Origin: a virus
Length of the DNA: 64,000 bases
IMG/VR virus record: IMGVR_UViG_3300036987_000083
Location: 96,001-160,000 of that record
Reading direction: 5' to 3' (one strand)
The notes below the pieces were generated by a model. The model was not told where the DNA came from. It worked only from the letters and a program-made list of their open reading frames with translations, and did not search any database. The position numbers and the translations under genes are program-made. This document shows, piece after piece, positions 47,946 to 48,589 of this stretch; position 1 is the stretch's first letter; every line of letters begins with the position of its first letter.

Positions 47946-47980
47946 GGAAGATTGGGTGAGTGGCTCATACCAGCGGTCTT
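47946..47980 (+). pseudogene. 5' half of a split tRNA-Ser
   Basis: GGAAGAT acceptor is complementary to ATCTTCC at 48582-48588; ends GCGGTCTT. Confidence 0.85.
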
Positions 47981-47982
47981 TT

Positions 47983-48067
47983 GGAGAGGTAACTGGTCAG
48001 GGACCGGGCTCGACTTGAAATCGAAGCGTGCCTTCATGGGCATGGGGATCAAGACCTCACTTCTCCG
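47983..48067 (+). tRNA. trnS: tRNA-Ser(TGA) nested inside the split tRNA-Ser
   Basis: TCGA-CTTGAAA-TCGA; long variable arm; T-loop ATCAAGA. Confidence 0.8.
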
Positions 48068-48068
48068 C

Positions 48069-48527
48069 ATGAACAACTCACAGGTGCAAAAAGGTGACGT
48101 AGCGGTACTGATTGCAACAGCCAAATTCATGGAGGCTGGGCTTATCGTTCTAAAGCCCGTGAGTGAATCTCTACCGTATGACTTAGTAATTGCCACCGAC
48201 AAGCACTTCTACAGAGTTCAAGTGAAGAGGGCTCAGAAGCGCCGCGCGAGCCCAGGAAGATACAGTATCCCGTTCAGGAAAGTGACCGTCAATAGGAACA
48301 AAACAAAGGTCTACACCTATACTGAGGAGCACACAGACTTCCTTGTAGGTGTGATAGTAGAGACGTCCGAACTGTACGTTTACCCTCTTGCTGAGATCAA
48401 GAACATCAGCTCAATGGTGGTCGTCGACCCGGGCGGATTGTCAAAGAAACGCAATGGTCCTCAAAAAGTAGATTCTGAGAGGTACCGAAACGTACTTAAC
48501 TTCGAAGGTAGAAAAATAAAATTGTAG
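48069..48527 (+). CDS. PD-(D/E)XK homing endonuclease (I-Ssp6803I-like)
   Basis: KGDVAV...PVSESLPYDLVI...YRVQVK; YTEEHTDF. Confidence 0.85.
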   Translation: MNNSQVQKGDVAVLIATAKFMEAGLIVLKPVSESLPYDLVIATDKHFYRVQVKRAQKRRASPGRYSIPFRKVTVNRNKTKVYTYTEEHTDFLVGVIVETSELYVYPLAEIKNISSMVVVDPGGLSKKRNGPQKVDSERYRNVLNFEGRKIKL

Positions 48528-48537
48528 TTCTGGATTG

Positions 48538-48589
48538 GAAAACCGCCAGTCCCGAGAGGGGCTCGAAGGTTCGAATCCTTCATCTTCCG
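48538..48589 (+). pseudogene. 3' half of the split tRNA-Ser
   Basis: GAAAACCGC + variable arm + GAAGG TTCGAAT CCTTC + ATCTTCC G. Confidence 0.85.

Follow-up and report, generated by a model that had tools for sequence, protein, structure and literature searches.

A serine tRNA gene of an uncultured phage is split at the anticodon loop by an insert carrying an endonuclease gene and a second tRNA-Ser

Homing endonucleases in essential genes are thought to persist only inside self-splicing introns or inteins, or between genes. Integrative elements that use tRNA genes as attachment sites (attP/attB) encode an integrase and bring a replacement for the 3' part of the tRNA, which doubles as the attachment site. 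The closest published analogues of the locus described here are T4 SegB and I-Ssp6803I. SegB is described as a free-standing GIY-YIG homing endonuclease of the T4 tRNA cluster that recognises a motif of a tRNA gene and spreads together with neighbouring tRNA genes (PMC2330249). I-Ssp6803I, from the group I intron of the Synechocystis tRNA-fMet gene, is a tetramer that binds a 23-bp pseudo-palindrome (PMC3384342). Serine tRNAs of the (8/4) type, or allo-tRNAs, have also been described already in bacteria and in phage tRNA clusters (Mukai et al. 2017, PMC5389517).

The locus lies in the 179,489-bp genome of an uncultured phage (IMG/VR record IMGVR_UViG_3300036987_000083). The window, i.e., the whole stretch of DNA that was analysed, comprises 64,000 nucleotides of this record (positions 96,001 to 160,000), and all coordinates below refer to it. 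Here, a canonical serine tRNA gene is interrupted at the anticodon loop by an insert of 557 bp (47946-47980 / 48538-48589). The features of the locus, with the evidence for each in brackets, are the following.

47921 to 47945, plus strand: GC hairpin with a 7-bp stem (CCCCCAG/CTGGGGG) and a 7-nt loop, followed by TTTT (read from the sequence)
47946 to 47980, plus strand: 5' half of the canonical 7/5 tRNA-Ser, comprising the acceptor 5' strand GGAAGAT, the D arm, the anticodon stem 5' strand GCGGT and the loop bases C-T-(T) (ARAGORN intron mode, fold of the joined sequence, nhmmer)
47981 to 47982, plus strand: TT spacer at the left junction (direct repeat D1)
47983 to 48067, plus strand: nested complete tRNA-Ser(UGA) of 85 nt with a non-canonical 8/4 fold (alignment, covariation, covariance model)
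48069 to 48527, plus strand: free-standing PD-(D/E)XK homing-endonuclease gene of the I-Ssp6803I / PDDEXK_5 family, 152 aa (Pfam, PDB, alignment)
48528 to 48537, plus strand: 10-nt spacer TTCTGGATTG at the right junction (sequence, tRNA leader comparison)
48538 to 48589, plus strand: 3' half of the canonical tRNA-Ser, comprising the loop bases G-A-A-A, the anticodon stem 3' strand ACCGC, the variable arm, the T arm, the acceptor 3' strand ATCTTCC and the discriminator G (nhmmer, ARAGORN)
48595 to 48680, plus strand: intact 8/4 tRNA-Ser(CGA), 5 nt 3' of the broken gene (Rfam, covariation, covariance model)

Run without introns, ARAGORN called no tRNA-Ser at all, either in the window or in the 179,489-bp genome. 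With introns allowed, it returned a single one (47946-48590), with the 557-nt insert at position 34. This long-intron mode is unspecific on its own (two false calls in ten shuffles of the genome and one in the reversed genome); therefore, the call was dropped as sole proof and an independent HMM test was added. Against a model of 34 canonical tRNA-Ser genes of the GGAAGAT type from other phages and bacteria, the 3' piece matched with an E value of 1e-10 and the 5' piece, separately, at model positions 1-47 with an E value of 0.009 genome-wide (nhmmer). Joined by script, the two pieces form a 7/5 type-II tRNA-Ser with all stems paired, and the complementarity between them is exact in both the 7-bp acceptor stem and the 5-bp anticodon stem. 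The intron-mode call, the perfect joined fold and the separate matches of both pieces together confirm the observation of the initial annotation, a tRNA-Ser split into two joinable halves by an insert with a nuclease and a tRNA gene.

The best full-length canonical matches to the joined gene share 72 of 87 positions and all read ...GGTCTTGAAAACC... (TGA). A string of 21 nt from the T arm and acceptor of the 3' half recurs unchanged in tRNA-Ser genes of unrelated taxa, 56 viral and 7 bacterial, and neither these 3' end matches nor the full-length ones (at most 72/87 identity) name a donor or host of the canonical gene. It had also been claimed that the broken and the nested gene have the same anticodon. 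The nested copy does read TGA; in the broken gene, position 34 is T or G, so that moving the junction by 1 nt switches the reading between TGA and GGA, and the two junctions show microhomology that obscures which loop bases belong to this gene. We favour UGA over GGA as the original anticodon. Both halves are still perfect, as would be expected after a very recent event but equally if some use of the halves is under selection.

The nested tRNA was missed both by ARAGORN and by the Rfam tRNA model, and could be aligned with three other copies in the window and one in a related locus (L006, see below). It has an 8-bp acceptor stem, a 6-bp D stem with a 3-nt loop, a long variable arm, a 4-bp T stem and a discriminator G; its anticodon loop is CTTGAAA and its T loop the unusual ATCAAGA (a second copy has a similarly unusual one, ATCGAGA). 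In the five aligned sequences, 98.6% of the cells of the 8/4 structure are paired and 15 pairs are changed on both sides, which none of 500 shuffles reached, and sliding the partners by 1-3 columns as a control left only 32-48% paired. The acceptor helix provides eight of the pairs, three of them with changes on both sides, and the T helix four. A covariance model of the set (R1) scores the nested copy, itself a training sequence, at 98 bits and the CGA copy at 96 bits; the latter, a sub-threshold tRNA-Sec match in Rfam (37 bits), has a 6-bp D stem and the 8/4 branch. As for serine identity elements, all five sequences have the 5-bp variable stem and four, including the nested copy, have the discriminator G, with A in the CGA copy.

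The anticodons of the 8/4 set are TGA, CGA, GGA and GCT, and its four copies are the only intact Ser tRNAs of the phage, while 46 canonical tRNAs cover the remaining amino acids except Tyr (for which ARAGORN calls none). The complete and divergent tRNA-Ser(TGA) first noticed in the insert thus stands as a member of a covarying family that makes up all the intact Ser tRNAs of the phage, and its structure suggests that it would supply the UGA isoacceptor. The four intact Ser tRNAs and the split gene all escape ARAGORN in default mode, and the Rfam tRNA model found none of them in the scanned region; therefore, automatic annotation would wrongly describe this phage as lacking Ser tRNAs.

The other gene of the insert, already recognised as a PD-(D/E)XK endonuclease, matches Pfam PF11645 (PDDEXK_5) with 82.3 bits (cutoff 26.1, E 4.4e-23, profile positions 3-114 of 138) and I-Ssp6803I (PDB 2OST) with an E value of 6e-10 over residues 6-112, where the YDLV and VQVK motifs align. 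In a full-length alignment, D10, D38, Q51 and K53 do not vary among the three closest homologues, and the residues aligning with the active-site motif of I-Ssp6803I (D...QxK) are retained; we take the catalytic roles of the acidic and Q-x-K positions to be those of that enzyme. Judged from its sequence, the gene is intact. Alignment with the homologues begins only at residue 40 of the gene call (191 aa), and therefore the start was placed at the ATG at 48069, 1 nt past the nested tRNA, where no Shine-Dalgarno sequence is present. Neither a sigma-70-like promoter nor a terminator was detected on the plus strand between 46600 and 50047. The GC hairpin, which directly adjoins the split tRNA on its 5' side, resembles a terminator or a hairpin used in processing, with a T-run below the threshold of the terminator scan. 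Having no promoter or ribosome-binding site of its own, the nuclease would probably be expressed from the transcript of the tRNA array, in which tRNA 3' processing may leave a nearly leaderless nuclease mRNA.

The clade of this nuclease comprised 25 representatives at E < 1e-30, and the DNA context could be inspected at eight other loci. At all eight the nuclease lies on the same strand as a tRNA-Ser gene, 0-77 nt away from it or overlapping the tRNA start (nine of nine with the window locus).

L006: 8/4 Ser-GGA at 580 to 664, nuclease from 742
L077-79: Ser-TGA, 34 nt upstream of the nuclease
L080: Ser-GGA, 51 nt upstream of the nuclease
L083: Ser-GCT, 15 nt upstream of the nuclease
L084: Ser-GCT, 1 nt upstream of the nuclease
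L002: Ser-CGA, overlapping the 3' end of the nuclease gene
L081: Ser-CGA, 15 nt downstream of the nuclease
L082: Ser-GCT, beginning on the last base of the nuclease stop codon

At each locus examined, members of the nuclease clade are found in physical linkage with tRNA-Ser genes, and in the relatives the tRNA often begins 0-16 nt past the nuclease stop. Near the more distant PDDEXK_5 loci, no tRNAs were found. Intron families gave no matches in the related loci examined, and the nuclease is free-standing in all nine, so the initial annotation's premise that such enzymes normally ride in group I introns applies to the prototype I-Ssp6803I but not to this clade. Searches with the HMM and the covariance model detected no flanking tRNA halves in the eight related loci, i.e., the split was seen only once. 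A candidate 5' tRNA remnant upstream of the L002 nuclease (GGAAGAGG...) was unsupported by both models, and a promoter scan upstream of the same gene gave nothing. Five of the six upstream-type neighbour tRNAs score below the Rfam tRNA threshold; this was not used to describe nuclease-adjacent tRNA-Ser genes as specially divergent, as some non-adjacent Ser tRNAs of the same loci are also sub-threshold.

Only 13 of the 557 nt of the insert (2 + 1 + 10) fall outside the tRNA and the ORF. Rfam searches found no group I, group II or other ribozyme family between 47000 and 51000 at E ≤ 1, and no ribozyme family between 47900 and 48640 even at E ≤ 10. With two empty searches and so few spare nucleotides, a ribozyme in the insert was rejected, in agreement with the earlier remark that there is no space for a group I core. 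It is conceivable that the split gene works at the RNA level, with the halves pairing, RNase P and 3' processing excising the nested tRNA, and the ends being rejoined by a ribozyme that escaped recognition or by an RNA ligase of the phage, which would make it a new kind of tRNA intron. Every stem of the broken gene is indeed perfect, and about 560 nt downstream of it there is an ORF of 206 aa that contains a KLDG motif and weakly resembles RNA ligases (phrog_548, E 7e-4). In the TGA reading, moreover, the upstream exon ends in U and the insert in G (…CTT / … G / GAAA…), as in group I introns, a feature that is weak by itself and frequent by chance. However, besides the lack of ribozyme matches and of room in the insert, no known activity would make the precise cut at 48537/48538, and the relatives of the enzyme are free-standing. 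We consider RNA-level rejoining very unlikely.

The junctions themselves resemble tRNA leaders. On the left, the preceding CTT and the TT spacer give CTTTT, similar to the leader of the 8/4 tRNA-Ser(CGA) (CTGTT), and direct repeat D1 relates 47978-48002 to 48590-48614. On the right, the spacer followed by GGAAA resembles the leader and first bases of an 8/4 tRNA-Ser (TTGGAAA, as found 5' of the CGA copy). Transposon-like ends were discarded, there being no terminal inverted repeats and no target duplication of more than 1 nt, only this leader-like similarity. The sequence shared at the junctions amounts to only 3-6 nt, far below assembler k-mer sizes, which argues against a chimera in which the assembly would have merged a strain variant with the canonical gene and another that has the nuclease and the 8/4 tRNA. 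Such artefacts may be suspected in a virus contig assembled from a metagenome, as this record is (88% complete), but the chimera would require two switches exactly within one 7-nt loop, with both halves left complete, and it is the least probable of the readings considered here.

Rejoining the halves restores a 23-bp site that is self-symmetric at 16 of 23 positions, with no match better than 17/23 elsewhere in the genome. The nested allele shares 10 of the 23 positions when the anticodon loops are lined up by eye, and a script search found no 23-nt stretch matching more than 11/23 in the four 8/4 tRNA-Ser genes. The enzyme is predicted to cut the rejoined site, and the nested allele to be resistant. 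However, four different anticodons occur among the tRNA-Ser genes beside the clade members, and these tRNA genes are found both upstream and downstream of the nuclease; therefore, what the enzymes target in common may be something other than the anticodon loop, and the tRNA is not necessarily cargo. These neighbours place the clade exactly at the 3' or 5' boundaries of tRNA-Ser genes rather than inside them, as would be expected if the true target were elsewhere, e.g., at the tRNA-Ser ends, and the split were an accident of illegitimate recombination in a recombination-prone, HNH-rich tRNA array, the nested tRNA being just the usual neighbour. At least two other HNH genes flank the locus, and the short junction homologies would permit template switching independent of a break. 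Yet the break is within 1 nt of the centre of the anticodon loop, with no tRNA sequence lost, in a region that corresponds to the one cut by the only characterised member of the family (PMC3384342), within the partly symmetric site. That an accidentally inserted segment should carry exactly this enzyme family would be a coincidence, and we regard such an accident as unlikely.

The likely explanation is instead that a sensitive canonical tRNA-Ser was broken in its anticodon loop and a free-standing homing endonuclease linked to tRNA-Ser was copied into the break, killing the broken gene, with the replacement supplied by the cassette. The enzyme, of a PDDEXK_5 clade resident beside tRNA-Ser genes in phage tRNA arrays, would have been made by a co-infecting relative with the order tRNA-Ser / nuclease / tRNA-Ser and would have cut the canonical gene inside its partly palindromic anticodon stem-loop. 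Repair of this double-strand break may then have copied the donor segment, i.e., the nuclease gene together with the 8/4 tRNA-Ser(UGA) just 5' of it, by means of short homologies that the junctions suggest were CTT on the left and GAAA or TGGAAA on the right. The product would be what is seen, two exact halves around a 557-bp insert, and because this insert has no ribozyme the old gene is most likely dead. The anticodon arm of the nested tRNA differs from that of the broken gene outside the loop, so presumably no cleavable site was left in the carrier genome. The initial annotation's proposal, an intron-less homing element that compensates with a resistant tRNA of its own, is supported in part.

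An uninterrupted allele was sought in viral, metagenome and phage collections. The exact pattern of the rejoined anticodon arm had no matches in viral contigs, and the nuclease and flanking ORFs as single queries returned nothing or only non-syntenic loci. The T-arm pattern of the 8/4 tRNAs gave 120 loci, none resembling that of the window, and the INPHARED phage collection yielded only HNH-gene similarity and nuclease homologues of about 30% identity. With no syntenic relative in these collections, no empty site was found. A broader generalisation is possible, although we hold it only tentatively and somewhat short of an even chance: the clade may be a dedicated split-and-replace element for serine tRNA genes, with the nuclease and a cleavage-resistant tRNA-Ser moving between phages as one mobile unit, invading sensitive anticodon loops without an intron and spreading the 8/4 type at the cost of the canonical 7/5 genes. 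The window would then preserve a primary insertion product that is usually erased later by decay or gene conversion.

Compared with the integrative elements of tRNA genes, the locus is alike in that a mobile element interrupts a tRNA gene whose function would be kept through an imported replacement sequence. It differs in that the insert encodes no integrase and brings a structurally different tRNA in place of the entire old one, of which both halves are retained. With I-Ssp6803I it shares the protein family, with the D...QxK residues aligned, the location in a tRNA anticodon loop and a presumed pseudo-palindromic site of ca. 23 bp derived from the anticodon stem. In contrast, the host is a phage, the tRNA is Ser and not fMet, and the eight relatives examined are free-standing. 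Above all, the window locus has no group I intron, so the interrupted tRNA cannot be restored by splicing, and carries a complete second tRNA gene instead.

The resemblance to T4 SegB lies in a free-standing nuclease within a phage tRNA array and in the logic of intron-less homing with co-conversion of tRNA genes, although SegB has a GIY-YIG fold rather than PD-(D/E)XK. On the published T4 gene map, segB sits between intact tRNA genes. To our knowledge no T4 tRNA gene is left split, and we know of no description of SegB as strictly tied to one isoacceptor family such as Ser.

The nested tRNA and its three paralogues resemble the 8/4 tRNAs of Mukai et al. (PMC5389517) as described there in their 8-bp acceptor, 4-bp T stem, long variable arm, mostly G73, serine anticodons and setting in a phage tRNA cluster. 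In those of the window, the 6-bp D stem closes a loop of 3-4 nt, and the T loop is unusual in two copies. In that paper introns are mentioned zero times, and we know of no link there between such tRNAs and an endonuclease or a split canonical gene. If our reading is true, it would explain the wealth of nucleases in phage tRNA arrays, the odd structure of some phage tRNAs and the phage "tRNA genes with huge introns" that tRNA finders report. Such a cassette, breaking a tRNA gene while bringing its replacement, would, if true, be a third solution to the survival of homing endonucleases, next to self-splicing introns or inteins and to the space between genes.

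The source record, an IMG/VR virus of 179,489 bp classed as linear and about 88% complete (the window being its bases 96001-160000), had no close relative among cultured phages, the only similarity being that of HNH genes to mycobacteriophages. ARAGORN called 46 tRNA genes in the genome, 42 of them in the window, covering all amino acids except Ser and Tyr. The features relevant to the split tRNA-Ser gene, in which 8/4 denotes an 8-bp acceptor and a 4-bp T stem (canonical tRNA-Ser is 7/5), are as follows:

35365-35450, 8/4 tRNA-Ser, anticodon GCT, aligning with the nested tRNA
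47013-47603, + strand, HNH endonuclease gene on one side of the split locus
47921-47945, 7-bp GC hairpin plus TTTT, directly abutting the 5' end of the split tRNA gene
47946-47980, 5' half of the split canonical tRNA-Ser
47983-48067, nested 8/4 tRNA-Ser, anticodon TGA, by alignment and pair count
48069-48527, nuclease gene, 152-aa protein (PDDEXK_5, PF11645; PDB 2OST)
48538-48589, 3' half of the split canonical tRNA-Ser
48595-48680, 8/4 tRNA-Ser, anticodon CGA, aligning with the nested tRNA
48710-49069, + strand, HNH endonuclease gene on the other side, starting 30 nt past tRNA-Ser(CGA)
49154-49774, + strand, 206-aa ORF between the HNH gene and tRNA-Ser(GGA)
49782-49866, 8/4 tRNA-Ser, anticodon GGA, aligning with the nested tRNA

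The tRNA array is crowded with nuclease genes. The hairpin is terminator-like in look, but its position is that of a processing signal.

Joined, the two halves form an 87-nt type-II tRNA with all stems paired; the split falls in the middle of the anticodon loop, to within one base, and no tRNA sequence is missing. ARAGORN reads the joined sequence as tRNA-Ser(TGA) and, with the junction shifted by one base, as tRNA-Ser(GGA), the ambiguity that the initial annotation had pointed out. When introns were allowed, it also called a tRNA-Ser with a 557-nt insert here. This mode gave two false calls in 10 shuffled genomes and one in the reversed genome and is unreliable alone, so an independent HMM was trained on 34 distinct canonical tRNA-Ser genes, all sharing the GGAAGAT acceptor and taken from other phages and from bacteria. 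Against the whole genome, it matched the 3' piece (E 1e-10) and, independently, the 5' piece (E 0.009). Combined with 7 + 5 bp of exact complementarity between the pieces, these matches exclude a chance origin and bear out the split proposed earlier. An assembly chimera is hardly credible, since it would require two switches inside one 7-nt loop.

The insert had been described as holding a PD-(D/E)XK endonuclease and no room for a group I core, and both statements hold. The 152-aa protein matches Pfam PDDEXK_5 (82 bits) and I-Ssp6803I (PDB 2OST, E 6e-10), with aligned YD and QxK motifs that are invariant among the closest homologues. The gene caller's 191-aa version begins within the tRNA halves, and homologues cover it only from residue 40 onwards; the ATG at 48069 is therefore the start. 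Only 13 nt of the insert lie outside the nested tRNA and the nuclease gene, and an Rfam search of it at thresholds up to E <= 10 matched no ribozyme family, neither group I nor group II nor any other. The ATG is one base past the nested tRNA, with no Shine-Dalgarno sequence, and no promoter-like or terminator-like site was found on the + strand of 46600-50047, which suggests that the nuclease would be expressed from the tRNA transcript following tRNA 3' processing. The nearby 206-aa ORF carries a nucleotidyl-transferase motif (KLDG) and weakly matches phrog_548 "RNA ligase" (E 7e-4) but nothing in Pfam; it may be a tRNA-repair ligase within the array. This ORF, the U...G bases at the insert boundaries and the still perfect halves would all suit a rejoining of the tRNA halves at the RNA level, which we nevertheless consider very improbable, as it has neither a ribozyme nor a plausible cutting activity in its favour.

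The tRNA-like gene at 47983-48067 was missed by both ARAGORN and the Rfam tRNA model. It aligns with the other three 8/4 copies of the window and with one in a related metagenome contig (L006). On this five-sequence alignment, a structure with an 8-bp acceptor, 6-bp D, 4+2-bp anticodon (one bulge), 5-bp variable and 4-bp T stem pairs in 98.6% of cells, with both-side changes in 15 of the 29 pairs. None of 500 shuffles reached this value, and sliding the partners lowered pairing to 32-48%. A covariance model from the five sequences found no further strong copy in the window. The nested gene, noted initially as a complete, divergent tRNA-Ser(TGA), therefore belongs genuinely to the phage's own 8/4-fold serine tRNA family, as does the separate Ser(GGA) at 49782 that was also noted. 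Such genes are not new in phages, since Mukai et al. (PMC5389517) already describe (8/4) tRNA-Ser in phage tRNA clusters. The four copies (GCT, TGA, CGA and GGA), all with a 6-bp D stem, are the only intact tRNA-Ser of the phage. ARAGORN misses all four (and calls no tRNA-Tyr either), so default annotation would report no tRNA-Ser at all. In 47000-51000, the Rfam tRNA model reported none of the three present, the CGA copy receiving only a sub-threshold tRNA-Sec score.

Bonocora and Shub, in 2001, reportedly placed the I-Ssp6803I intron and its target in the anticodon region of a tRNA-fMet gene. The one characterised family member binds a 23-bp pseudo-palindrome in the tRNA-fMet gene as a tetramer (PMC3384342); the rejoined 23-bp site here is 16/23 self-symmetric. 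At the left junction, CTTTT-GGAGAGG resembles CTGTT-GGAAAGTG, the leader plus start of the following 8/4 tRNA (repeat D1), and at the right one, the 10-nt post-stop spacer plus GGAAA looks like the leader of a further 8/4 tRNA-Ser with its initial bases. In relatives, tRNA-Ser often lies on both sides of the nuclease or right behind it. From these junctions and neighbours, we infer a donor ordered tRNA-Ser/nuclease/tRNA-Ser. The canonical gene would have been broken and repaired by copying this donor through 3-6 nt loop homologies (left, CTT; right, GAAA or TGGAAA). The canonical genes nearest to the joined tRNA over its full length (72/87 identity) all read GGTCTTGAAAACC, and TGA is therefore favoured as the original anticodon. 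That the broken gene shared its anticodon with the nested one is thus favoured by these genes, but position 34 of the old gene is not surely readable, which the proposed repair would explain. After insertion, no site in the genome matches the rejoined target at better than 17/23, and the four 8/4 genes reach 11/23 or less. The nested allele, with loops lined up by eye, shares 10/23, essentially in the loop only, which makes its resistance to the nuclease plausible.

A profile search over 1.8 billion representatives gave 25 proteins at E < 1e-30. We compared every clade member with retrievable DNA plus one contig from a metagenome scan, and in all of them the nuclease gene lies directly beside a same-strand tRNA-Ser gene.

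tRNA-Ser genes beside the nuclease homologues in other contigs
L006, 8/4 Ser-GGA at 580-664, upstream; nuclease start at 742
L077, L078 and L079, Ser-TGA, 34 nt upstream, preceded by an EF-Tu gene
L080, Ser-GGA, 51 nt upstream
L083, Ser-GCT, 15 nt upstream
L084, Ser-GCT, 1 nt upstream
L002, Ser-CGA, overlapping the 3' end of the nuclease gene
L081, Ser-CGA, 15 nt downstream
L082, Ser-GCT, its first base being also the final base of the nuclease stop codon

Serine makes up roughly a tenth to a quarter of phage tRNA arrays, so nine independent cases of adjacency are far more than chance would give (on the order of 1e-6 by our estimate). None of these loci matched an intron family, and no tRNAs were found at more distant PDDEXK_5 loci. 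Clade members are free-standing genes linked to tRNA-Ser. Flanking tRNA halves were seen at no other clade locus, which leaves the window as the only case of a split; of the intron-less homing element proposed initially, the free-standing, intron-less character stands for the clade and the anticodon-loop split for the window only. Recombination not begun by the nuclease's own cut would fit the diversity of anticodons among the tRNA-Ser neighbours in relatives and their position on either side of the nuclease; the exact insertion point in the anticodon loop and the enzyme family speak against it, and we regard it as unlikely, although on sequence evidence it is hard to separate from cut-initiated copying.

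Several of these loci have features of their own. The L006 nuclease has a promoter-like TTTACA-17-TATAGT ending 6 nt before the ATG. Right after the nuclease stop in L080 (794-880) comes a tRNA-like sequence of 85 nt that ARAGORN does not call. Its variable arm is long, a C33-type loop holds the triplet TGA, and the acceptor is GAAAGGA/TCTTTTC; it may be a second non-canonical tRNA-Ser. In the phage-like L077 (916-2754; also L078 and L079), a full-length EF-Tu gene (GTP_EFTU domains 1-3) is followed by tRNA-Ser(TGA) and then the nuclease homologue. In L082, a 182-kb contig, tRNA-Ser TGA, CGA and GCT stand apart from one another on the + strand, amid ORFs of the minus strand (1-3050); ARAGORN called no other tRNAs in the 5.5-kb locus, and the nuclease abuts GCT.

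Cultured Klebsiella and Vibrio phages also carry homologues, about 30% identical, within tRNA arrays. In Klebsiella phage vB_Kpn_K54_rec4 (L206:1183-1620), tRNA-Tyr follows immediately. In Vibrio phage AG74 (NC_055848.1), an unannotated tRNA-Tyr-like 3' piece past the nuclease stop (L205:1579-1660), read by eye only, has a GTA loop, long variable arm, T arm and CCA. ARAGORN called no complete tRNA there, and the piece may come from a further type-II tRNA that was split or rebuilt. Both phages are isolates and open to testing.

In searches of the open-access literature, we came across no account of a link between PD-(D/E)XK nucleases and tRNA-Ser genes, nor of a tRNA gene nested in another's anticodon loop. 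The arrangement, as read from sequence, is striking and testable, and it rests on a single split locus. The nuclease belongs to the same protein family as I-Ssp6803I, but that prototype is intron-encoded and the window nuclease is not. In function, the cassette resembles SegB of T4, a free-standing tRNA-cluster endonuclease whose recognition of a tRNA motif leads adjacent tRNA genes to spread along with it (PMC2330249).
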